Program-made: the position numbers and the translations under genes
Origin: a virus
Taxonomy: Duplodnaviria > Heunggongvirae > Uroviricota > Caudoviricetes
Strand: one strand, 5' to 3'
Virus record (IMG/VR): IMGVR_UViG_2609459769_000006
DNA: 15,351 bases
Notes under the pieces: model-generated
What the model saw: only the letters and a program-made list of their open reading frames with translations
The model's database searches: none
What the model was told of the DNA's origin: nothing
Shown here: positions 1,031 to 14,593 of the stretch, piece by piece
Position numbering within the stretch: the first letter of the stretch is position 1
How the letters are laid out: every line of letters begins with the position of its first letter

Positions 1031-1630
1031 TCAGAAACGGTATCCGATACCAACAATAAATGCATCCGTTCGCCAGTCGCCACTACCGGAACCTTCATAA
1101 GCAAGGTCAATGGTCACGGATTCGGTCGGGTTAAACTGCACGCCAGCCCCCCACGCCAGAGACGTGTTGCTGTGGCGACCGTCATCACTTCCGGTCAGCA
1201 CATCGTGCGTTTTCCCCTTGTTGTCAGTTACGCGGAGATAATCCCCGGAGAAAGTCGACACACGGCTGTAAGCCACACCCGCCATCGCATACGCGCTGAA
1301 CCATTCATTCACGCGTACAGACGGCCCCGCCATCACGCTGAACCAGCGGTTACGCACGGAATCTTCATGCCAGCGGGTATCGCTGTAGCGCGTTTTTTGC
1401 TCATCCTCAGCATTGGCATAACTGAAGGACGTAATCAGCCCCAGCGCGTCCGTAAACTCATAACGGTATTTCACGTTAATCCCGTTCAGATCATCACTAC
1501 CGGGAACGTTCGTCGAGGCATGGAGATACCCCGCGCTCAGCGTGGACTGATGTTCTGCTGCACTCGCTGGCGTAGCAGCGGCGACCTGCCAGACTACTGC
1601 GGACAAAATAACAGCACATAATTTACGCAT
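1031..1630 (-). CDS. lom: Lom outer-membrane protein (Ail/Lom family beta-barrel)
   Basis: 199-aa ORF MRKLCAVILSAV...HQSTLSAGYLHASTNVPGSDDLNGINVKYRYEFTD...AYEGSGSGDWRTDAFIVGIGYRF: signal peptide plus near-identity to my recollection of lambda Lom, ending in aromatic residue typical of OM beta-barrels; GAGAGG SD upstream of ATG 1630. Confidence 0.9.
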   Translation of the reverse strand: MRKLCAVILSAVVWQVAAATPASAAEHQSTLSAGYLHASTNVPGSDDLNGINVKYRYEFTDALGLITSFSYANAEDEQKTRYSDTRWHEDSVRNRWFSVMAGPSVRVNEWFSAYAMAGVAYSRVSTFSGDYLRVTDNKGKTHDVLTGSDDGRHSNTSLAWGAGVQFNPTESVTIDLAYEGSGSGDWRTDAFIVGIGYRF

Positions 1631-1697: not shown

Positions 1698-3068
1698 TCA
1701 GCTAATCGTGATGCCTGCAGTGGCTTTCTTCATCACCACAACCAGCAAATCGCTGATACTTGCTGTGGGATACCAGTTATTTACCAGCCATGCTGACACC
1801 GAAAACTCCAGTGTCATGTGACCGTGACCGGCAGGCATATCAATAACACCACTGTAAATCAGCGTATTATCCAGCGCGGTACGGTTATAAATTTCAGCAC
1901 CGTTTTTCCGCACTATCAGACGGCATGAGGAGTAAATATCAGTATGCTCTTTCTCATGTTTAGCGCCGCTGAATGCCACCGCCGGAATAACAATCTGCCG
2001 GTCAAACGGCTGATCGTCATAAACCCTGACGGTAATGGTTCCTGATGGCCACCGCTCCGGTGCACGGGAGTCCCGGGGGAAAGCTTTGCCCACTGTTTTA
2101 ACGAGATCGCCTTCAATCTGGTTCGCGGACAATTTTCCCAGAACCCGACAGTTCTCGTTAATCGTGACGTTGTTGAGCGTCCCGGAGTTCGCATTCACGT
2201 TACCGCTGATATCGGCATTTTTCGCCGTCAGCCGCCCGTCCGGTGTCAGGGAAAATGCCGGAGGATTACCGCCGCTGGTAATGGTGGGAGCCGTCAGATA
2301 TTTCAGGAACACTTCATTCATAAATATCTGATCGCCCTGACCAACAAACATCGGCTTTGTGTTGCCATTCGCAGGATTAATCATCGCAATCCTGTCTGCC
2401 GCCAGCAGCACCTGACTCTGCATTCCTGCTGGCGTATTCTCAATACCGGCACCGATACCCGCAATATAAAGGCGTCCGTCCTGCATCTGCTGCAGTTTCA
2501 CGGCCCACATGCTGTTCAGGTTATTATTTGTATCAACCTGAACTTTCTGTATCTGCTGGATTGCCGCACTCTGATTTTCCAGTTTTTTATTGACGGTCTG
2601 CGTGATTTCATTGCTGACATTCGTAATGGACGTCCTGATTTCAGCCAGGTCCGGCGCAAGCTGACCGTTATCAATCTGCGTCCACAGCTCCTGGGCCAGA
2701 TGTGTTTTCCCGATTTCTCCTTTGAAAAAATCCAGGTAACCTTCCGCATCATCGCTCGCCCGACCGACAGCCTCCACGAATGCCGATTTGCCAACAGTAT
2801 TCACACTGCGGATATAAAAATAATAATCATGGCCCGGTTTGATATTGATACTGGCAGCTATCCAGTACAGCGCCGAGCCAAGATAGCGGGCTGCGGTTTC
2901 AACCTGCCTGATATCCGCAATCCGCTTTTCCGAGAACCAGAACTCAAACTGTATCCGTGGTGGGGTTGTCGAACTCATCCGCCACCGCAGGACCGTTATC
3001 TGACTAACCTGTATTTCAAAATCAGAGAGGACCGTCGTAAGGCTGCACGGGGAGAGTAATTCAATGAC
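1698..3068 (-). pseudogene. J: Host-specificity/central tail fiber protein J, C-terminal fragment (5'-truncated remnant, about 456 codons of open frame)
   Basis: Translation contains [24 protein letters not shown]...[50 protein letters not shown]...[45 protein letters not shown], recognised as the C-terminal region of lambda J. Frame is open upstream only to a stop at 3069-3071, so roughly 670 N-terminal codons of a full-length J are absent; first ATG is at 2978. Confidence 0.75.
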
Positions 3069-3408
3069 TCAAAACTATGAACTGATTGTGAAAGGGATCC
3101 GCAATTTTGAGAATAAAGTTACGGTAACTTTAGCGTTACGGGACAAAAAACGCTTTGACGGTGAAATTTTTGACCTGGACATCTCGCTGGACCGTGTTGA
3201 AGGTGCCGCGCTGGAGTTTTATGAGGCAGCAGCCAGAAGGAGCATCAGACAGGTCTTCCTGGATGTTGCTGCCGGGTTATGTGAAGGGGATGAGCAGTCG
3301 CCGGAAAAGCGCCCCGTAATTTTAGAGGCGCAGGATGTGTTGATAACCTACAGAGGAAAACTACCGGGAATAATTACGGGTTCTCTGAAGAGTCCGCCGA
3401 AATGGTAA
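3064..3408 (+). CDS. Hypothetical protein (114 aa), sits at the J truncation junction
   Basis: ORF with GGGGAGAG SD-like sequence 7 nt upstream of ATG 3064; soluble-looking protein; no family recognised. Confidence 0.45.
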
Positions 3409-3646
3409 TTTTACCAGCATATTTTTCATCCAGTAATACAGCAAGCCGCCTGAAAGAGTCTTGTTGTTCCTGAGACCATTTGGGATTGCATGATTCAAAC
3501 TGGATTGATGCCAGCGTTGATTGCATCTGTTCCCTTGGAATTGAGAATGCCAGATATGAGAAGGCGACGGTAAGGGTATTCACGTCTTCCCGAAGCCTGG
3601 AAATGCTGTCGAGCAACTCCTGTAGAGAAATGGTGTTATTGTCCAT
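3374..3646 (-). CDS. Hypothetical protein (90 aa)
   Basis: ORF with GAGGAT SD 6 nt upstream of ATG 3646; 3' end overlaps the 3' end of the convergent 114-aa ORF by 35 nt; no family recognised. Confidence 0.4.
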   Translation of the reverse strand: MDNNTISLQELLDSISRLREDVNTLTVAFSYLAFSIPREQMQSTLASIQFESCNPKWSQEQQDSFRRLAVLLDEKYAGKITISADSSENP

Positions 3647-3751
3647 AAATAATCCTCATGATTGTATTGACCTGTTAGCAGCCTGAGGCAACAGGCTGGA
3701 ACTGATAAACATATCCAGGGCTCAGAAACCGATAAATCCTGATAAATATCC

Positions 3752-4315
3752 ATGAACGCAAAAATCAGATACGGCCTGTCGGCTGCCGTTCTGGCGCTGA
3801 TTGCCGCTGGTGCGCCTGCGCCTGACATTCTCGACCAGTTTCTGGATGAAAAGGAAGGTAACCACACCACGGCATACCGTGATGGCGCGGGTATCTGGAC
3901 CATCTGCCGCGGTGCCATCCTGGTGGATGGCAAACCTGTCGTTCCGGGCATGAAGTTGTCGAAGGAAAAATGCGACCGGGTTAACGCCATTGAGCGTGAT
4001 AAGGCGCTGGCATGGGTGGAGAAAAACATCAGAGTGCCATTGAGTGAACCCCAGAAACGGGTGATCACCGGGATTGCGTCAACGCCTTCTCCGGATCGGG
4101 ATGGTGACATCCTGGAGCCGGAGGGCGCGGAGTTTGGCAGTGCGATCCCGTTTCTCTGGCAGCATGACCATTCCCGCCCGGTGGGGCAGTGTACGGTACG
4201 CCGGGTCAGCGAAGGGCTGGAAATCACGGCAACACTGGTGAAGCCCGTACCGGATATGCCGTCGCAACTGGCTGCCCGGCTGCCGGGCCAGCCACTCCAT
4301 TCAGTTTCGGAGTAA
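3752..4315 (+). pseudogene. Chimeric remnant: SAR-endolysin (GH24 phage lysozyme) N-terminus fused in frame to a prohead protease (HK97-type) N-terminal fragment
   Basis: Residues 1-105 (nt 3752-4066): signal-anchor-like LSAAVLALIAAGA followed by lysozyme catalytic E-8aa-D-5aa-T pattern (EGNHTTAYRDGAGIWT). Residues from about 106 (nt 4067-4315): IASTPSPDRDGDILEPEGAEF...PFLWQHDHSRPVGQ, resembling the N-terminus of caudoviral prohead proteases. Too short for either full enzyme; no holin upstream; no clear SD. Confidence 0.55.
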
Positions 4316-5309
4316 CCGTGGCACTGCCGGCGGTGAACACCAGCTCCAGCGTCTGCCAGTCGTTACTGTAATTCCCGAACTCGCCCAACTTTGTGTTTCC
4401 TGCTTTCCTGTGATGCATCAGATTCAGTTTGCCGTCTGTGGTCTGGGTGAAGAACGACATCAGGAACGGGTTACCAGTCCCGGTCATCGTCACGACGTCA
4501 GGTAACGCTACATCGGTATACAGATAAATTCCCAGACCGAACTGGTTGTTGGTCAGTGCGCCTGACAGTCGAAACTTACAGCTCAGTCTGCCACCCCGTG
4601 TCAGCAGGGAGACTGCGTCATCCACCGGATGCATCAGGGACCAGGTTTTATTGCTCTGCTTGGTAACCTTAAACACACCATCTTCCAGCGCAACACTGCC
4701 GCCGGTGATGGTCCAGCCCTGCGCAGCAGCCTCTCCGGCTGTCGGCAGCAGGGAGACTGTACGAACGGATGTGTCACCATCAGACGGCCCCGATGGCGTG
4801 TCGCCGCCGGGCGAGGGTTTAATCTCCGGTGCGGTACCGCTGATGAAGGCGCTGGTTCGACCAACTGCGTTCAGAATAGCGGTTGCCAGGCGATCCGAAA
4901 TAATGCCCCTGCGCGCCCATGAACTGAAATGTGTCGGACGATTTGACGATACCCAATTACCATTACTACGGGATTGCGCGCCGTAATAACCTGCATCAGC
5001 AATATCCGGGTCTTCTGCCGGTAAGTTGGTGGGCGTGTTGTTGCCGTTACCGTCGGTCATGAACGGCACAAAGAAAACGTTGTCGCTCTCCCTGTTTTTG
5101 TACGCGCCGTAGACGGAGTCATACTGTGTGCCGTATGTGTTTTTCCAGTAATACGTCGTGTCGCCACAAATCCACGGTACAACTGCAGCACTGCCGCCAT
5201 GGCACTGCGCCGCCAGCCCGGCAAGGTCAGCACGGAACTGCTGTACCATTGCAAGAAATGCTGCTGGCTGCTGGGCGTACCAGAACAGATCGAAGTAATA
5301 CCCGCACAT
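4224..5309 (-). CDS. Hypothetical two-domain protein (361 aa): Cys/aromatic-rich N-domain, Pro/Ser/Gly linker, C-terminal Gly/Thr-rich probable beta-rich domain
   Basis: Longest and most protein-like ORF in this GC-rich stretch; start ATG overlaps the stop of the upstream 92-aa ORF in a TAATG arrangement (5305-5309), suggesting translational coupling; linker PEIKPSPGGDTPSGPSDGDTS. No family recognised. Confidence 0.6.
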   Translation of the reverse strand: MCGYYFDLFWYAQQPAAFLAMVQQFRADLAGLAAQCHGGSAAVVPWICGDTTYYWKNTYGTQYDSVYGAYKNRESDNVFFVPFMTDGNGNNTPTNLPAEDPDIADAGYYGAQSRSNGNWVSSNRPTHFSSWARRGIISDRLATAILNAVGRTSAFISGTAPEIKPSPGGDTPSGPSDGDTSVRTVSLLPTAGEAAAQGWTITGGSVALEDGVFKVTKQSNKTWSLMHPVDDAVSLLTRGGRLSCKFRLSGALTNNQFGLGIYLYTDVALPDVVTMTGTGNPFLMSFFTQTTDGKLNLMHHRKAGNTKLGEFGNYSNDWQTLELVFTAGSATVTPKLNGVAGPAAGQPVATAYPVRASPVLP

Positions 5310-5587: not shown

Positions 5588-5854
5588 CTGTTTTCTCTGC
5601 TGGCGCAGCAGGTGCCAGTTGTTCAGGCTGACGTATGAAGTATAAATAAACTGGCTCCAGTGTAAAGCCCCACCTTAATGGAATAAAAACCAAACAACAG
5701 ATTGCTGGGATAAAAATACAACGCTTATTATTAAAAGCGGTTAGATAAATTAAATTTTAATGTTATGCAAATCTGCCAGATTAGCATAATATTTCATTTG
5801 AAAACCGCTGAAATAACAATCTTATCGGGATTAATCATATTAAGGTGAGTAAAT

Positions 5855-5941
5855 ATGGAAAACAACAAATCTGCACATTACGCTCCTTTTTTATCTGTAA
5901 TACTTTTTGTATTTTGTTGTGTATGGGCGGTATTTTTATAA
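5855..5941 (+). CDS. Candidate small hydrophobic peptide (28 aa, MENNKSAHYAPFLSVILFVFCCVWAVFL)
   Basis: Not in supplied ORF track (below size cutoff). AAGGTGAG SD at 5842-5849, 5 nt before ATG 5855; polar N-terminus then 17 hydrophobic residues; stop TAA 5939-5941 followed 20 nt later by a hairpin terminator; lies in AT-rich intergenic DNA convergent with the protease gene. Codons verified by hand. Confidence 0.3.
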   Translation: MENNKSAHYAPFLSVILFVFCCVWAVFL

Positions 5942-5961
5942 AACACACCCACAAATAAATC

Positions 5962-5981
5962 AAACCCGCTACAGCGGGTTT
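5962..5981. terminator. Putative bidirectional intrinsic terminator
   Basis: Perfect 8-bp inverted repeat AAACCCGC-taca-GCGGGTTT; T-rich sequence follows on both strands (plus: gatttatat; minus: gatttatttgtgggtgtgtttt). Positioned between the protease stop (5996-5998) and the small plus-strand ORF stop (5939-5941). Confidence 0.5.
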
Positions 5982-5995
5982 GATTTATATAGTTG

Positions 5996-8260
5996 TTATA
6001 CGGAAACTGGCACACGAGCAGGCAATGGATAGTGAGCCCAGTTATTAGCATTTAAAGCTCTTACGCCATCAGCATAAACTTGTGTGTTTCCATCTAATGA
6101 TTTTAAAGTTACTACAATAGTTACAGGTAAAGGCTCCATTAAGGCCGGTTCATTCGCTCTCAACGTTGTTTTAGCTTGAAGAGCCCAGTTACCCGAAGTA
6201 ATTCCTTTATTAAATGCCTTGCGATGAATTTTTACTGGTGACCACTTTCCACCATGCTCAATTTGAGCTCTCTCATATCCAGATTGACCGTTTTCTCCTT
6301 CCATAGGTACTTTTCCTTTTATAGTATTATTCTCAATTAAGCCAAAACTTAGCTCTACGTTCGCGCGAACATATTCACTGCCGGCATTAGGGTTCAGTGG
6401 TGGTGCATATGCAGCAGTAATTACAATCTCACCTTTAAATTTTCCATTTTGAATAAGTGCCGATGGTATGGGATAGTTTTCCTTTCTCCACCTCACCCCA
6501 GGAACCAAGAATGTTTGGAAAATCAGAGTAAACCTATCATCACTATCATATAAGGTCTCAATAACCTCATTAGGAATTCCCGCTCCCAAATAGCGTCTTT
6601 CACTTGGCGAGTAATCAGGAGAAGATAATTGAGCGGAATGAATTAATAATGCTTTAATCAATGATGGTGAAACATTAAAGTCTGAATTAGTGGCTATTCT
6701 CTGCCATGTATGCGCAGCTAAACTTGCCACAATTGGAGCAGCAAAACTAGTACCAAAATTAGAGCAAAGCCTATTATCTGGCCCTACGACCTTTAAACTG
6801 CTTGCTCCTACATTCCAAGGTCTATGAACCCCACCGCCAGCATGGATTATATCTGGCTTTGGAGTAAATACAGGCCCAGGGCCACGACGAGTATATGGTG
6901 TCGGTGTTCCAATTTCACTTAAAGCATCATTAGCTTCCATATGAGAAACTGAACCAACTGTTAGTGCTCGGACTGACTCTCCAGGAGAGGAAATTAAATC
7001 AGCACCTCCAAGCGGATCAGGATTTGGCCATGTACGTATAGGTTCATCTACATAATTACCTGCAGCAACTACAAACAAAATACCAAATTTATCGCTGAGC
7101 CGATCTAACTCCATCGCAAAATCACTAAACATCTGCTCATTACATGGTCCGCCTCCCAAAGATAAATTCCAGACTTTTATATCTGGTCTTTTATTTACAG
7201 CATCTGCTAGCCTCAGAATTAAATCTGATATATAAGATCCATTTTCATCTAAAGCACAAACATCATGGATTTTAGATTTTGTATCAGGAATCCATGGATG
7301 ATTGTCATTTAAAAAATGAGCGCCTGATATCAATGAAGACACCATAGTCCCATGTTCATAACTCGTATCAGGAGGAATTACGTATGTTTCCCTACTCACT
7401 ACCCAAGGAGTAATTGTTGCCGCGATGGGGCTTACCCCAGTGTCAAATACAGCAACAATGGGTAATTCTTCTGATGGTACGGGAAAGCTATTTGTTTCAA
7501 TGCCAACAGAATCACTTACACTAACCGGGAATGCTGAATATTTTGGTTCTGGAATTAACGTTCTTATACCCGGGTAATCAATGAGAATGTCTAATATATA
7601 TCTATCATTTGGGGATAAATCCATTATCCTTAATAAGGGAAGACCACATTTTGGTCTAATCTCATCATATTTAACTCCGTGTTGTTCTAATATAGAAATA
7701 ACGTTTTCATAGTTGTTGTAAGTTGCATCTTCACCTGTGTACTCAAATAGTCGTACAAGGATGTTTGATGATTCAAACAAACCATCAGTGCCTCCTGGAA
7801 CCTTCCTATTCTCATCCCAAGGTTCAATGCGCTCAATCGCGCTTAGATTAGCCAAAATCGCTTTAATATTCCGATGTAAAATGACTGACTCTAATACGTC
7901 AAAACAGCCGGCATGAGCAGCAACCAACATTTCATCTATTTTGGCATGACCGGCATTTTGCAATCCAGCCTCTTGAGCAATTTTGTTCGGCCTATGCGTT
8001 TTGGCTATTCCCTGGTCTCTTAATTTGAAAACCAAAGTACCCAAGCTTCCAGGGTACTCTGAAAGTTTGGATTCTAAATAATGTTTACTGGTTGTTAAAT
8101 TTCTTACTAGCCCTTGTCTATATTCGGCTGTTACATCAACCAATACCTTTGCCCCACCGCCAGCGTTTACTATTGCACCCAAGTCACTACTGGAAAAAGG
8201 GATTCTTAACATTGGGTTTGTAACTTTTGCGTTACTAAACTGTGTACCCCTTCTGCTCAT
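5996..8260 (-). CDS. Large subtilisin-like serine protease (peptidase S8 fold) with uncharacterised N- and C-terminal extensions, 754 aa
   Basis: Canonical subtilase order and motifs: Asp in VAVFDTGV (D273), His in YEHGTMVSS (H303), oxyanion Asn in VVAAGN (N401), Ser in GTSFAAP (S505). About 255 residues before and about 195 after the catalytic domain with no recognised motifs. ATG 8260 preceded by AGGAG; start overlaps ATPase stop by 26 nt. AT-rich codon usage. Confidence 0.85.
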   Translation of the reverse strand: MSRRGTQFSNAKVTNPMLRIPFSSSDLGAIVNAGGGAKVLVDVTAEYRQGLVRNLTTSKHYLESKLSEYPGSLGTLVFKLRDQGIAKTHRPNKIAQEAGLQNAGHAKIDEMLVAAHAGCFDVLESVILHRNIKAILANLSAIERIEPWDENRKVPGGTDGLFESSNILVRLFEYTGEDATYNNYENVISILEQHGVKYDEIRPKCGLPLLRIMDLSPNDRYILDILIDYPGIRTLIPEPKYSAFPVSVSDSVGIETNSFPVPSEELPIVAVFDTGVSPIAATITPWVVSRETYVIPPDTSYEHGTMVSSLISGAHFLNDNHPWIPDTKSKIHDVCALDENGSYISDLILRLADAVNKRPDIKVWNLSLGGGPCNEQMFSDFAMELDRLSDKFGILFVVAAGNYVDEPIRTWPNPDPLGGADLISSPGESVRALTVGSVSHMEANDALSEIGTPTPYTRRGPGPVFTPKPDIIHAGGGVHRPWNVGASSLKVVGPDNRLCSNFGTSFAAPIVASLAAHTWQRIATNSDFNVSPSLIKALLIHSAQLSSPDYSPSERRYLGAGIPNEVIETLYDSDDRFTLIFQTFLVPGVRWRKENYPIPSALIQNGKFKGEIVITAAYAPPLNPNAGSEYVRANVELSFGLIENNTIKGKVPMEGENGQSGYERAQIEHGGKWSPVKIHRKAFNKGITSGNWALQAKTTLRANEPALMEPLPVTIVVTLKSLDGNTQVYADGVRALNANNWAHYPLPARVPVSV

Positions 8261-9389
8261 ATGCTCCTGACTCCTTCAGAATGTTTGAAATTACTCTTGA
8301 TGTAAGTTTGTACAAATTAGCAAGAACTCTGATAGAAAATAATTTTTTATCTTTAGAACGTAACCAACGAATTTCATCTTCGTAAGTGCTTAAATTTACA
8401 CCTTCCATAAGCGATTGCGCAAGATACAAACGCCTATACAATTTATGGTGATTTATCACACTTGCACCTTCAATAACTGCATCCCTACGTGCATCCAAGC
8501 TCACCTGTTCAATTATTGCTCCGGATAATCCCTCCGATTTTCTTGATAAATCACTTAAATCTAGATCGCTACATATCATATTCTTTAAACGATTTTTCCA
8601 AATTAACTCTCTCTGATGTATGTCAGGCAGAGGCATTGGAATTCTGAAGCTAAATCGCCTCCAGATTGCAGGATCCAGAAGTTGCTCATGGTTAGTTGAG
8701 GCAATAATTACCGTATCCTCTGATGCCGCATCCATATTCTGCAATAGTGAAATGACAACTCGCTGAAGCTCACCTATATCTCTCTCATTACCTCTTGCTC
8801 CAGCTAAAGCATCAAATTCGTCTAAAAAAAGCACTGATGGCCTCTGCATTACATAATCGAAAACCTGTCTAAGATTTTTGCTGGTTTGTCCCAATAAACT
8901 ACTAATCAAAGTATCGCAACGCACTGTAAGAAGTGGAAAATCTAAGCGGGTAGCGATGTACTTAGATAACATAGTCTTACCTGTTCCTGGCTTTCCATAC
9001 ACGAGCATACGACTCGGCAATGCTGCATCAGCTTTAACAAACTCATCATAACGTTGAACATTAGTGATAAACTCTTCAACACGGGTACTGATTGCTGCAG
9101 GCAGAAAAATCTCTGAACTGTCTAATTTAGGATAACTGACATCAACAGTGTTGAGTCGACTATCAATATCTACCGGTAATGAGCCCAGAGATATCCCACC
9201 TCCAGCCCTTTGAGCTCCTGCCAACGCCTGGGGAGCTCTAAGCAACCTTTCTCTTATCATTCTGGCTTGCTTGACCTCCCCTTTTTGTTCGAGCTTATCT
9301 GCCAGCAACCCAGCATAATTACTAGCCATCGAAGCATTTGCCTTTGTTGCACCTTCAATGATTTTTAACACTTCTGATAAATAATCCAT
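8235..9389 (-). CDS. AAA+ ATPase (classic AAA clade), 384 aa
   Basis: Walker A GKPGTGKT (res 132-139), Walker B VLFLDEFD (186-193), sensor-1 STN (231-233), second region of homology with arginine pair PAIWRRFSF (240-248). GGGAG SD 7 nt upstream of ATG 9389. 3' end overlaps protease start (operon). Confidence 0.85.
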   Translation of the reverse strand: MDYLSEVLKIIEGATKANASMASNYAGLLADKLEQKGEVKQARMIRERLLRAPQALAGAQRAGGGISLGSLPVDIDSRLNTVDVSYPKLDSSEIFLPAAISTRVEEFITNVQRYDEFVKADAALPSRMLVYGKPGTGKTMLSKYIATRLDFPLLTVRCDTLISSLLGQTSKNLRQVFDYVMQRPSVLFLDEFDALAGARGNERDIGELQRVVISLLQNMDAASEDTVIIASTNHEQLLDPAIWRRFSFRIPMPLPDIHQRELIWKNRLKNMICSDLDLSDLSRKSEGLSGAIIEQVSLDARRDAVIEGASVINHHKLYRRLYLAQSLMEGVNLSTYEDEIRWLRSKDKKLFSIRVLANLYKLTSRVISNILKESGAYEQKGYTV

Positions 9390-9582
9390 TCAACACTCCC
9401 ACAACAAAAAGCCACAGCAATCAAAAAATGAGCACACAGAATCAAAATACTCTCTAATCGTAACGCATTTTGAGATTTTTGATACGTTTTTTTGGGATTA
9501 TGTAACGCCAAATGGTCATTTTGTGTCAGAAAAATAAATCTTAGTACCGAGAATATGTAGCTTCCATCCTTCATCGTTCTAT
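9390..9582 (-). promoter_or_regulatory. AT-rich upstream region of the ATPase-protease operon (probable promoter region, not mapped)
   Basis: 193-nt AT-rich non-coding spacer between the stop of the 143-aa gene and the ATPase start; contains TTGATT/TTGATTG-like -35 candidates on the minus strand. No precise -10/-35 assignment claimed. Confidence 0.3.
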
Positions 9583-10014
9583 TCATCCCTGATCTCCAAG
9601 CCTCTCTCGAAAACCATTCTGATAAAACGCCAGCACACGCTGCATAACTTCGCTCTTCCGGCACTCGCGACAGATTATGTTCAGACGCCTGTCGTAGCGG
9701 CGTATTTCTCCGTCTGGTAATGACCAGATAAGGTCCGGATCAACCACAGATGGTTTCTTCACCTTTGCCCTGGATAGTTTTTTGCGGGCATTTTGCCAGT
9801 CCTTACGAGCCTGTTCAGACGGGAATAACCCGTAACCAGAGTTGTATACATCGCCACTGGCAACCAGCTCTCTGGCGAGAACGCTCATCAGATATCTTGT
9901 CGCACCTGTCTTGGCTTCCAGTTGCCGTAACGTCTCGCGCCCACTCCGGCGTACTAGCTCAACAACCTGCCCTTTAATTTTTTCCCGCTCTTCTTGTGTA
10001 AATACTTTTGCCAT
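9583..10014 (-). CDS. Hypothetical protein (143 aa from ATG 10014; ORF track used an upstream TTG), possible winged-helix N-terminus
   Basis: GGAGG SD 7 nt upstream of ATG at 10014-10012; begins MAKVFTQEEREKIKGQVVELVRRSG...; basic C-terminal half with single CxxC. Immediately follows the stop of the upstream gene (10030-10032). Confidence 0.5.
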   Translation of the reverse strand: MAKVFTQEEREKIKGQVVELVRRSGRETLRQLEAKTGATRYLMSVLARELVASGDVYNSGYGLFPSEQARKDWQNARKKLSRAKVKKPSVVDPDLIWSLPDGEIRRYDRRLNIICRECRKSEVMQRVLAFYQNGFRERLGDQG

Positions 10015-10029
10015 AAGCGCCTCCGGCAA

Positions 10030-10791
10030 TCACTTTTCCGATACAACACGGCGGGAAGAATCAGTAATCTGTCGAACAATATCCCGGTGCTTGTTCAGCT
10101 CCCGCAGCGCGGCGCAGACTCGCTCCCACTTCTGGACATGATTTTTCGCCCGACGCAGTTCGCGGTTTGCCATATGCAGTGATGGTAAAACCAGGTCATC
10201 CGCTCGCGTTTCAGTAAACGATGGCAGCGACTGCACAATGTCCGCCACAGTTTCTGTTTTAATATCTTCCTGTGTTGCAGCCTCCTGTACTGGTAACGCA
10301 ACACCTGCGGTATGAGGAAAGGCCTTACCATCAGTTTCCGCTACCGATGCTGCTTTCGGCTCTGCTGGTAAATTATCGCCCGGTATGCAGTAACGAAATT
10401 TACCGCCCTGATTTACGCGAATCAGACGACCTTTGCTGATTGCCATTGCCAGCGTTGAAGCCACTTTGCGTGATGTGGTACCAAACAATGTAGCCAGCTC
10501 ATCAGCCATTTGTGGTCCTCGTTGTTCAATCGTCGCGGTTAAATCGCACTCTGAGATTTTCGCTACTGTTGCTGTGGTGATTTCTTCCGGCAGTTCTGCC
10601 TGCGCTGGCTGTTCCTGCTGAACGTTGTTATCAGCCACACGCCAGGTGTACGCGCTTTTATCAACAAAACCAGCCTTTTTCAGTTCCCATAGTTCGTTCA
10701 GCACTTCTTCACGACTGATATCAAGTCGCGCAGCAAGTTCTATGGATGTGGCTTTTCCCATTGCTTTCAGTGCGTCAAAAACAGTCTCCAT
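10030..10791 (-). CDS. Hypothetical phage protein with apparent tandem winged-helix-like segments (253 aa from ATG 10791; alternative upstream ATG at 10842 gives 270 aa)
   Basis: GGGAGA SD 9 nt upstream of ATG 10791 and no overlap with DnaC-like gene; the longer start would overlap the upstream gene by 29 nt. N-terminus [43 protein letters not shown] resembles a wHTH. Occupies the YdaW position of Rac-type prophages. Confidence 0.55.
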
Positions 10792-10813
10792 TAAATTTTT
10801 CTCCCGGTAAAAA

Positions 10814-11560
10814 TTACTTCGCAATTCCTGGCTGGACGACATTCGGACGCCAGCTCTCCCAGTTAAAATTCACCCATAGCCCGCCGTTCATGGTCATGCG
10901 ATCCATAATCCGCTCGCCGAGCAATGTTTTCATGGCCTCATAGTTCAGGTTTGTCAGCATCCCCACGCTGCGCATCGACGCTGTCCGGCGATCAACAATC
11001 TGGTGCAGTACCACCTGCTCGTTTTTCGTCTCGCGCTGAATGCCAATTTCATCAAGAACCAGCAGATCCACTTCGCACAGTTCCCGCAAAAATTTTTCGC
11101 CTGACTGCCCATCGTCATAGCTGGCGTGGAGGGCACTCATAACATCAGCCACGGTAACCACAATCACTGTCTGACCGTCTTTCAGCAGGCGATTCCCGAT
11201 AGCTGCTGCTAAGTGGTTCTTCCCGGTACCAGGTTTTCCGCTAAACGCGAAATTTGTGCATCCGGTCATCAGTTCATCAGCGATAGATTTCGCCTGGCTC
11301 AACGCGTATCGCTGACCGTCGTTCTGCACCTGGTAATTCGCAAACGAGCATTTACGGTGCAACGGCTGGATGCCTGAGCGATTCAGAATTTTTTCCACCC
11401 GCAACTGGCGATTCAGGCGGTTGATCTCCTCGCTACGTTTCTGGCCTTCAGCAAGTTGCCACTCGTGCCACTCCGCTACCGTTCTGAATGGGGCGGTTAC
11501 ATGTGGCGGAGCCAGTCTTCGGATACGTTCAAGAACGCCGCCTGCCGCAATGTTTTTCAT
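10814..11560 (-). CDS. ydaV: DnaC-like replicative helicase loader (AAA+), Rac YdaV-like
   Basis: Walker [16 protein letters not shown], Walker [10 protein letters not shown], and C-terminal half closely resembling host DnaC ([23 protein letters not shown]). Symbol assigned by synteny, size and recollection, not by alignment. Confidence 0.8.
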
Positions 11561-13342: not shown

Positions 13343-13762
13343 ATGGACAAATATGAATTTAGACGACAGCAACTCATCAAAATTCGTGATGAGAAATGCG
13401 ATGGTAAAGCGGTTAACGTGGCCAGAAAGATCGGGCGCGAGCCTTCTTATGTATCAAGAATGTTGTACCCAGAGGGGAAAAAGGGAAAAAAACGGATCGC
13501 TGATGATATGGTGGAGATTATCGAAGAGTCCTTTGGGTTACCCCGGGGATGGATGGATGGTATCGTTTCATCATCAACGAACACAGCCTCCAGTTATGAA
13601 ACAAGGGTTCTAACGCCACGACAACGTATTTTTTTAGATCTCTTAGACGAACTGCCAGAAAGTGAAGCGGATAAATTATTAAAAACTCTTGAAGAGAAAA
13701 AACAGTATTACAATATGATCTACGAAGAAATCCGTAAAAAGAAAGCACAAAACGCATCATAG
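13343..13762 (+). CDS. Prophage repressor (CI functional analogue, RacR-like), HTH N-terminus, no LexA-type peptidase domain
   Basis: 139-aa ORF divergent from Cro-like gene; HTH-like GKAVNVARKIGREPSYVSRMLY; C-terminus charged/coiled-coil-like without the Ser/Lys dyad region of S24 autopeptidases; flanked on both sides by operator-like 12-mers. No in-frame upstream start exists. Confidence 0.7.
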   Translation: MDKYEFRRQQLIKIRDEKCDGKAVNVARKIGREPSYVSRMLYPEGKKGKKRIADDMVEIIEESFGLPRGWMDGIVSSSTNTASSYETRVLTPRQRIFLDLLDELPESEADKLLKTLEEKKQYYNMIYEEIRKKKAQNAS

Positions 13763-13946: not shown

Positions 13947-14180
13947 ATGACGGCAGGGTTCAACTTTAATAACTATGCAGCAGGTTTTTGTTCCGCTACC
14001 CCGGCGTTAAGGGGAAATGAGGTCAACATGGATATGCTCAATCTTGGCAACAACGAATCTCTGGTATGTGGCGTGTTCCCCAACCAGGACGGCACGTTTA
14101 CCGCGATGACGTATACCAGAAGCAAAACGTTTAAAACTGAAGCTGGCGCGCGTCGCTGGTTAACCAGAAACACTGACTGA
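13947..14180 (+). CDS. Small hypothetical protein (77 aa; alternative start ATG 14028 gives 51 aa)
   Basis: ORF downstream of the OL-like sites; internal ATG at 14028 has a GAGG SD 5 nt upstream. Stop TGA overlaps the next ATG (TGATG at 14178-14182). Occupies the ydaF/ydaG-like position of Rac-type prophages; no sequence recognition. Confidence 0.4.
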   Translation: MTAGFNFNNYAAGFCSATPALRGNEVNMDMLNLGNNESLVCGVFPNQDGTFTAMTYTRSKTFKTEAGARRWLTRNTD

Positions 14181-14593
14181 TGAGGTTGACGATGGAATTT
14201 AAAGATTTACCAGTACCATTCCAGGAAATGGCATCGAATGTGGTTCGCTCTCAACTGGCGACTCTTGACCTGAGTACCGTAGAAAAAGAAACCATCGATA
14301 CTATATCCGGTAACGTGCGTCGTGCCTTTATAGGTCTGTATGAAGAGAAGCGCCTATTCGGCGGACAGAATTCGCCTGAAAACAAGAATCAAGCAAATGA
14401 TGAGAAGCTGAAACACATTATCGCCTTACTTTTGGAAGACGCAAAACGTCTACAGCAACTGGAACCAAATGCAGGCACAGAGGCCCGCATTTGGATTGCC
14501 ATGAAATCACTCAAATGTGAAAGCAGTGATTATTTCAAAACAACAATTAAAACTACTCAACTTTCGGGAGAGCTACTGAAGAAATTGCCATAA
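14180..14593 (+). CDS. Hypothetical protein (137 aa)
   Basis: Start coupled to upstream stop (TGATG); alternative ATG at 14192 with GAGG SD. No family recognised. Confidence 0.5.
   Translation: MRLTMEFKDLPVPFQEMASNVVRSQLATLDLSTVEKETIDTISGNVRRAFIGLYEEKRLFGGQNSPENKNQANDEKLKHIIALLLEDAKRLQQLEPNAGTEARIWIAMKSLKCESSDYFKTTIKTTQLSGELLKKLP

Follow-up and report, generated by a model that had tools for sequence, protein, structure and literature searches.

An IetAS (IteAS) gene pair in the cargo slot of a decayed Rac-like lambdoid prophage

Introduction

The anti-phage system IetAS was reportedly described by Gao et al. in 2020 (Science 369:1077), and the ietAS genes of Ti/Ri plasmids are said to have been described as a toxin-antitoxin system by Yamamoto et al. 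in 2009 (J Bacteriol 191:4656). We take both accounts as they are cited in PMC13069673, PMC8562856, and two bioRxiv papers. In the family literature, IetS is a protease toxin and IetA an ATPase antitoxin of an abortive infection system, in which ATP-hydrolysing IetA neutralises IetS and defence needs protease activity. Members of the family are reported to protect against phage (gkag308; bioRxiv 10.1101/2022.08.27.505566). In Bacillus cereus m1293, ietAS acts by abortive infection and is triggered by expression of SPbeta YosG (Stokar-Avihail et al., bioRxiv 10.1101/2022.08.27.505566), and in the ietHAS system (Liu-DS4; NAR 2026, gkag308) defence requires protease activity and an ietA mutant could not be cloned. 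A comparable pair, TA132/133 of Mycoplasma, encodes a protease that is toxic in E. coli and an ATPase that neutralises it (PMC8562856). [quoted passage not shown]

Here we analyze a 15,351-nt stretch of Caudoviricetes DNA (IMG/VR record IMGVR_UViG_2609459769_000006; the whole stretch is referred to as the window) that carries an ATPase-protease gene pair, for whose protein accessions a literature search gave no match. The best overall explanation, to which we assign a probability of about 0.88, is a known IetAS cassette carried as cargo in a decayed Rac-like lambdoid prophage, with IetS presumably latent under the control of IetA.

Results

Gene pair, operon, and flanking signals

A sequence-only reading of the window had described two minus-strand ORFs overlapping by 26 nt as a single operon, and their coordinates hold (Table 1). 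The ietA stop codon (TAG) occupies 8237-8235 and the ietS start codon (ATG) 8260-8258 of the window sequence, a GAAGGAG/AGGAG Shine-Dalgarno sequence lies upstream of ietS, and the overlap recurs in the annotation of RefSeq genomes and of the Klebsiella homologue. The overlap is consistent with a single operon and probably results in translational coupling. Beginning 8 nt past the ietS stop is a terminator-like hairpin; ietA and ietS form one operon with its own terminator.

Table 1. Positions of the cassette, its signals, and the surrounding slot in the window.
Feature	Position	Strand	Description
Variable cargo (moron) slot	5647..9618	.	DUF977 gene to nin-like region; homology breakpoints vs. 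an Iet-less relative
ietA (NCBI spelling iteA)	8235..9389	-	384-aa classic-clade AAA+ ATPase; antitoxin/regulator partner
ietS (iteS)	5996..8260	-	754-aa cytoplasmic S8 subtilase; toxin/effector partner
ietA/ietS overlap, 26 nt	8235..8260	-	ietA stop to ietS start
Intrinsic-terminator-like hairpin	5955..5988	-	13-15 bp stem, 4-nt loop, T-rich tail after
Cassette leader, probable promoter/operator region	9390..9493	-	conservation with the Klebsiella cassette

DNA homology to the Klebsiella cassette extends from window position 9493 to 6037 only, so that the leader is the only upstream DNA conserved between the two. Alignment of the two leaders gives a common block, CAAAAAAACGTATCAAAAAT.T.AAAAT.CGTTACGAT, at about 9457-9494, and a sigma-70 promoter scan of the 193-nt gap upstream of ietA found no consensus site. 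A 73-aa ORF at 9365-9586, labelled "kinase (fragment)" in the phage record, shares an ATGA overlap with the DUF977 gene and 25 nt with ietA. We considered this ORF as a third component and rejected it, because the Klebsiella cassette does not conserve it and PGAP makes no such call.

IetA and IetS proteins

The full set of classic-clade AAA+ catalytic motifs is present in IetA, at the positions given by the sequence-only reading: Walker A GKPGTGKT at 132-139 (K138), VLFLDEFD at 186-193 (D190/E191), STN at 231-233 (sensor 1 N233), and the RR arginine fingers R244/R245, all invariant across 43 homologues. In its predicted structure, the AAA module (about 98-330) follows a three-helix bundle at the N-terminus (4-62) and precedes a three-helix, HTH-like tail at the C-terminus (336-372); the model resembles a classic-clade unfoldase with these two appendages, a resemblance that we take as a modest hint. 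Searches with the tail of the E. coli protein gave just sub-threshold Pfam matches and a marginal match to mitoribosomal proteins, and the Agrobacterium-type tail matched about ten HTH families that agree with one another (E = 2e-4 to 1e-2), each of them under its gathering score. The pore loop of IetA is non-aromatic. A sequence search of the PDB found no Iet proteins.

In IetS, three of the four catalytic residues named earlier stand, D273, H303, and S505 being invariant across 47 homologues; the fourth, N401, was off by one, residue 401 being Gly and N402 the oxyanion Asn. No hydrophobic signal sequence is present at the N-terminus (MSRRGTQFSNAKVTNPMLRIPFSS...); IetS is an S8 protease without a signal peptide and with an intact catalytic set. 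In its predicted structure, the catalytic domain (about 268-560) is preceded by two beta-alpha-beta-beta-alpha-beta modules at the N-terminal end (about 74-147 and 167-237) and followed by a C-terminal beta-sandwich (about 576-720). An AKxHRP loop at residues 86-91 is invariant. So modelled, IetS resembles a pro-subtilase that has not been processed, its N-terminal domains being propeptide-like, again a modest hint. A search of IetS residues 60-262 in nine homologues for the Inhibitor_I9 propeptide gave no match, so this propeptide-like reading comes wholly from the predicted model.

Assignment to IetAS

The likeness of the pair to an anti-phage IetA/IetS cargo module, noticed in the sequence-only reading, is borne out by the profile searches proposed there. 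The Pfam families AAA and Peptidase_S8 match IetA (2.6e-30) and IetS (5.6e-26), respectively, and both proteins match the PADLOC models essentially over their full length: IetA matches PDLC02196 over residues 1-374 of 384 (E = 8.9e-143), and IetS matches PDLC02197 over residues 12-753 (E = 3.3e-300). In addition, IetA scores 526.6 bits against the NCBIfam equivalog NF042959 ("anti-phage ATPase IteA"; cut-off 510) and IetS 1041 bits against NF042956 ("S8 family anti-phage peptidase IteS"; cut-off 900), and RefSeq proteins identical to the two products already bear anti-phage IteA/IteS names. The AAA ATPase gene lies upstream of an adjacent, co-oriented S8 protease gene, the AAA+ motifs as well as the subtilase triad and oxyanion Asn are intact, both proteins are homologous to a plasmid-borne AAA+S8 pair (the Ri-plasmid pair was used), and the cassette has a patchy occurrence on mobile elements and defence islands. 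Each sequence-level membership test that was run pointed the same way, and at that level the assignment of the pair to the Iet system is settled. The cassette is already known and annotated, an ordinary copy of IetAS and no candidate for a new system.

Distribution and prophage setting

Of 5426 complete E. coli genomes, 78 (1.4%) carry the cassette at ≥99% identity, always in the same prophage slot, and nearly all of the 78 have an iteA/iteS annotation. It is also found in phage vB_EcoS-683R6, a homologous cassette occurs in a Klebsiella prophage, and further homologues reside on islands beside Shedu, Fic, or NERD genes. Every neighbourhood seen belonged to a prophage, a phage, a plasmid, or a genomic island.

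The prophage setting and the AT-rich island described from the letters agree with our analysis, GC being 0.39 over 5588-9582 vs. 0.53 in the left flank and 0.49 in the right. On the replication side of the cassette are genes for an HTH_36 protein, a ydaV-like protein, DUF1627, and DUF977; on the opposite side are a DUF968 remnant, lysis fragments, a J fragment, and Lom. The prophage lacks Q, terminase, head genes, and most tail genes; ietAS itself is intact and 100% identical to other copies. The nin-like region bordering the slot consists of a 92-aa ORF, which has no Pfam family and belongs to phrog_1212, plus DUF968, and in an Iet-less relative the slot contains hokD, DUF551, and DUF4014 genes. 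A PADLOC scan of the other ORFs in the window for a second defence system gave only weak P-loop cross-matches, to the ydaV-like protein.

One positional claim did not survive, namely that this is also where K-12 Rac carries trkG. Phage vB_EcoS-683R6, an intact Rac-like phage, has ietAS between DUF977 and the nin/Q region; its trkG is found elsewhere, past the lysis genes, in a different cargo slot. The adjacency of trkG and ydaW in K-12 results solely from the absence of the nin/Q region and most of the lysis region.

Discussion

In the mechanism that we propose, a hexameric IetA ring would hold or continually remodel IetS in the uninfected cell, and IetS would remain latent and pro-enzyme-like, its active site masked by its own N-terminal propeptide-like domains. 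Upon infection, a phage product may disable, titrate, or redirect IetA, and the freed IetS would become active and cleave essential host and/or phage proteins, stopping growth ahead of progeny release. The HTH-like tail of IetA may autoregulate the operon, like type II antitoxins. A more specific form, in which IetS is a zymogen occluded by tandem ferredoxin-like domains and a Vps4/FtsH-like IetA gates the propeptide using ATP and autoregulates through the 9457-9494 leader, is possible, and we offer it tentatively. IetA would then be a single-ring unfoldase, its N-terminal helical bundle recognising the partner or trigger and its C-terminus forming an HTH. If true, this would be the first concrete mechanism for Iet defence.

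The same resemblance of IetS to an unprocessed pro-subtilase, together with that of IetA to substrate-remodelling classic AAA ATPases, would also suit reversed roles, in which IetA, on sensing phage, would act as an activating unfoldase and strip off or unfold the propeptide-like domains of IetS. Genetic reports (gkag308, PMC8562856) that ietA cannot be inactivated with ietS present, and that IetA neutralises IetS, count against an activator-only role because such a role predicts the opposite, and we consider the reversal improbable. Doubtful, with more in its favor, is the view that the cassette is mainly an addiction (post-segregational killing) module that stabilises the prophage, defence being secondary or absent for this copy. 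Both gkag308 and PMC8562856 cite a Ti-plasmid precedent, IetAS having first been described as a plasmid-stabilising toxin-antitoxin; an intact ietAS, identical to other copies, amid a decayed prophage fits a hard-to-delete module; and ECOR52 ietAS alone gave limited protection according to the literature. Phage protection has, however, been shown for family members, homologues lie beside other defence genes such as Shedu on islands, and the two roles are not mutually exclusive. Selection for defence likewise accounts for the survival of the cassette in a decaying prophage.

A distinct, new ATPase-protease family that merely resembles Iet could be suspected from the identity of only 28% to the Agrobacterium/Rhizobium plasmid-type IetS, where BLASTP leaves the N-terminal 260 residues unaligned. 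The Iet models of two independent curated libraries nevertheless match both proteins over their full length and above curated cut-offs, and the plasmid-type pair matches the same models, with the IetS profile covering residues 43-732 there, N-terminal region included; these PADLOC/NCBIfam and plasmid-pair matches already refute a new family, which we regard as very improbable. S8 proteases are often secreted enzymes, which might suggest that the operon encodes a secreted or housekeeping protease and plays no part in mobile-element conflict; against this stand the missing signal sequence of IetS, the exclusively mobile-element or island contexts seen, and the presence of the cassette in just 1.4% of E. 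coli genomes, and we give this reading practically no weight.

With the known IetAS cassette as the preferred reading, nothing is added to genome annotation, as the NCBI pipeline, PADLOC, and PHROGs already recognise it. The cassette does show a defence/addiction module staying 100% intact while the surrounding prophage decays, and it identifies the replication-to-nin slot of Rac-like phages as an exchangeable cargo slot, occupied by ietAS here and by hokD elsewhere. The pro-subtilase-like form of IetS, the HTH tail of IetA, and its non-aromatic pore loop are structural hints that could help in designing experiments on the Iet mechanism; they concern the whole Iet family and are not specific to the window copy.

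Comparison with known systems

The window pair has the same two genes as the IetAS/IteAS anti-phage system (Gao 2020; NF042959, NF042956; PDLC02196, PDLC02197), in the same order and with full-length model matches, and no difference is detectable at the sequence level. The ietAS of Ti/Ri plasmids, for which we used the AAA+S8 pair of pRiO132 and pRi1724-type plasmids, likewise has the AAA ATPase gene upstream of the S8 protease gene, and has the same best PADLOC models as the window pair for both proteins. Its IetA shows 39% identity over residues 4-307 (E = 7e-62), a span that takes in the SSLLG pore-loop motif and the WRRF arginine fingers, and its IetS shows 28% identity across the catalytic and C-terminal domains (E = 3e-31), the N-terminal region aligning at the profile level only. 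The Ri-plasmid pair differs in being plasmid-borne, in having its genes 52 nt apart instead of overlapping, and in the much clearer C-terminal HTH of its IetA. Because pTiC58 was absent from the hits examined, equivalence to the founding plasmid pair is by family.

The ietHAS system shares the IetA and IetS core, but requires a third gene, ietH, encoding an SNF2-family helicase; no helicase ORF adjoins the window cassette, the neighbours being the DUF977 gene and the 92-aa ORF. In Mycoplasma TA132/133, the gene for a 353-aa AAA antitoxin is upstream of that for a 757-aa S8 toxin in one operon; this pair, which we liken to the window pair by description, is chromosomal. B. cereus m1293 ietAS bears the same system name, although it is a distant homologue from a Gram-positive host, and by analogy it is the best available model for how the E. 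coli copy may act.

Identity of the ietAS cassette

Profile searches, which an earlier sequence-only reading had proposed, returned only the generic AAA and Peptidase_S8 domains in Pfam, and matched both proteins to the Iet system in PADLOC-DB: the ATPase to IetA PDLC02196 (residues 1-374, E = 8.9e-143) and the protease to IetS PDLC02197 (residues 12-753, E = 3.3e-300). Both also score above the curated equivalog cut-offs of NCBIfam, with 526.6 bits against NF042959 "anti-phage ATPase IteA" (cut-off 510) and 1041 bits against NF042956 "S8 family anti-phage peptidase IteS" (cut-off 900). IetA and IetS each define a dedicated PHROG family of unknown function, a 1093-member cluster under the name "S8 family anti-phage peptidase IteS" has precisely this IetS sequence at its head, and the top cassette match, at 100% identity, codes for WP_000385105.1 and WP_032183377.1. 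The sequence-only reading had suggested an Iet-like anti-phage defence module and left its membership open; the PADLOC and NCBIfam matches and the existing RefSeq names settle this question, and on these profile grounds the cassette is assigned to the Iet system. Neither the feature nor its annotation is new. NCBI spells the genes iteA/iteS ("Ite") and the literature and PADLOC ietA/ietS ("Iet"), a split through which a text search can miss the connection.

Cassette DNA (5996-9389) occurs, at an identity of at least 99%, in 78 of 5426 complete E. coli genomes, always chromosomal and single-copy, with the same flanks in all 78 copies and PGAP labels iteA/iteS in nearly all. A few copies look damaged or disturbed: in strain F2_81 the wider cassette match includes an IS3-family transposase, and frameshifts are suggested by two copies in which ietS is labelled only "S8 family peptidase" alongside a hypothetical protein.

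Operon structure and conserved motifs

Both long minus-strand ORFs and their overlap, as first read from the sequence, were confirmed: the ietA stop (TAG, 8237-8235) and the ietS start (ATG, 8260-8258) give a 26-nt overlap. This overlap, the ribosome-binding sequence (GAAGGAG/AGGAG) 5' of the ietS start and the hairpin after ietS together indicate that the pair is a self-contained operon. The AT-rich island was likewise recovered, with a GC content of 0.39 in 5588-9582 versus 0.53 leftward and 0.49 rightward.

Features of the cassette and its surroundings (window coordinates unless stated otherwise)
Feature	Position	Strand	Details
lom	1031-1630		
Tail-tip protein J, C-terminal fragment	1698-2978		
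Lysis-region fragment	2997-4066		holin, YdfR, lysozyme pieces; inverted versus related prophages
Deletion-fusion ORF	4224-5309	-	361 aa; junction ~5277-5279
Hairpin	5955-5988		GC-rich, 13-15 bp, then T-rich tail; starts 8 nt past ietS stop
ietS ORF	5996..8260	-	754 aa; ORF list
ietA ORF	8235..9389	-	384 aa; ORF list
ORF	9365-9586	-	73 aa; ATGA overlap with DUF977 stop; 25-nt overlap with ietA start
Conserved block	9457-9494	-	CAAAAAAACGTATCAAAAAT.T.AAAAT.CGTTACGAT; ~70-105 nt upstream of ietA; E. coli and Klebsiella
ORF	13343-13762	+	139 aa; low-GC immunity region
ORF	14180-14593	+	137 aa; low-GC immunity region
IetA motifs	Walker A K138; Walker B 186-193; sensor-1 N233; arginine fingers R244/R245		Walker B VLFLDEFD
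IetS catalytic residues	D273, H303, S505; oxyanion N402		
trkG versus ietAS in phage vB_EcoS-683R6	15682-17157 versus 7872-11265		separate places

The AAA motif set previously read in IetA was found at the same positions, and its residues are invariant in an alignment of 43 homologues. For IetS, the proposed D273, H303 and S505 stand, and the proposed N401 is replaced by N402, since residue 401 is a glycine; all four residues are invariant in 47 homologues (identity to the window proteins is 50-86% in both alignments). At the pore-loop-1 position (residues 163-170), IetA has an invariant SSLLGQTS and lacks the aromatic residue that typifies translocating classic AAA ATPases. This loop, which we take to be nearer in kind to that of p97 D1, may point to binding or remodelling instead of processive threading. 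Forward-looking content is limited to such family-wide structural hints.

Prophage context and cargo slot

The window is a decayed Rac-like lambdoid prophage, and its gene content places the cassette between replication module and tail remnants, as the initial reading held. To the right lie genes for DUF977, DUF1627, a ydaV-like DnaC/IstB ATPase and an HTH_36 replication protein, followed by YdaT-like and YdaS-like genes and the immunity region. Neither ORF of that region listed in the table matched Pfam or PADLOC; the 139-aa ORF lies where related prophages carry racR/cI-type repressors, is divergent to the ydaS-like gene and could be a repressor of unclassified type. To the left is a 5.85-kb deletion relative to the fuller prophage of strain 102651, with the loss of rusA, the Q antiterminator, a DNA methyltransferase and tRNA-Arg/Arg/Ile; the resulting ORF takes its first ~10 codons from the DUF968 gene and the remainder from the 3' part of the DUF6645/SASA-esterase gene. 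The inverted lysis fragment adjoins the protein J fragment, and 1-2958 also includes the beginning of a tail-fibre gene. Terminase, head and most tail genes are missing, so the prophage is cryptic.

Breakpoints against an Iet-less relative, E. coli EC21Z-078, delimit the variable slot to ~5647-9618. The relative carries hokD (type I toxin), DUF551, DUF4014 and small hypothetical genes there (14277-16605), which marks the slot as a hotspot at which toxin or defence cargo can be swapped. In Klebsiella, a homologue with 74% amino-acid identity fills this slot in a related prophage, with DNA similarity limited to 9493-6037, i.e., the cassette and ~100 nt of leader. This leader holds the conserved block, in whose region GCGTTAC occurs twice in E. 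coli; as a candidate operator or promoter element, the block may be a target of the HTH-like tail of IetA. The 73-aa ORF is labelled "kinase (fragment)" in ON470595; it lacks conservation upstream of Klebsiella ietA, is not called by PGAP and is probably not a gene.

The earlier suggestion that K-12 Rac has trkG at this position did not survive comparison with phage vB_EcoS-683R6 (ON470595, in which ietA is misnamed "cell division protein FtsH"). This apparently complete Rac-like phage carries the cassette (99.5% protein identity) between the DUF977 gene and the nin/Q region, and trkG past the lysis/spanin genes before parB/terminase, indicating two separate cargo slots. In K-12 Rac, ydaW is directly followed by rzpR and trkG, an artefact of deletions.

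Function and relation to known systems

We propose that IetA, with ATP, would hold IetS latent in a pro-enzyme-like state, that a phage product would disturb IetA, and that proteolysis by the freed IetS would abort the infection. According to PMC13069673, phage defence by ietAS needs protease activity and an ietA mutant was not clonable; as of April 2026, that paper says of the mechanism against phage that it "remains unknown". Reversed roles, with IetA as the activator of IetS, are quite improbable, being at odds with the reported genetics. A role in prophage addiction is plausible and compatible with defence. Model matches, genomic contexts and the N-terminus together exclude both a new family and a secreted housekeeping protease.

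Surveying the neighbourhoods of homologues, as also proposed earlier, revealed mobile settings (prophage, phage, plasmid island, genomic island). Of the more distant homologues, one is found on an IS21-flanked plasmid island, beside a Shedu nuclease and an integrase, and another shares its P. aeruginosa island with a transposase and with Fic, NERD and AAA_15/21 genes. An Agrobacterium/Rhizobium Ri-plasmid pair (39% identity to the window IetA, 28% to the window IetS) has the same best PADLOC models as the window pair and, judged by these, is a family member.

PMC13069673 traces ietAS to its first description as a toxin-antitoxin system of the Ti plasmid, in which the serine protease is the toxin and the ATPase the antitoxin. 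A B. cereus homologue shows abortive-infection behaviour and is toxic on expression of SPbeta YosG (bioRxiv 10.1101/2022.08.27.505566). The ietAS of E. coli ECOR52 gives limited protection alone and acts in synergy with Zorya II against T3, and the same source describes ietAS as frequently prophage-borne. An AAA/S8 pair from mycoplasma functions as a toxin-antitoxin system (PMC8562856).
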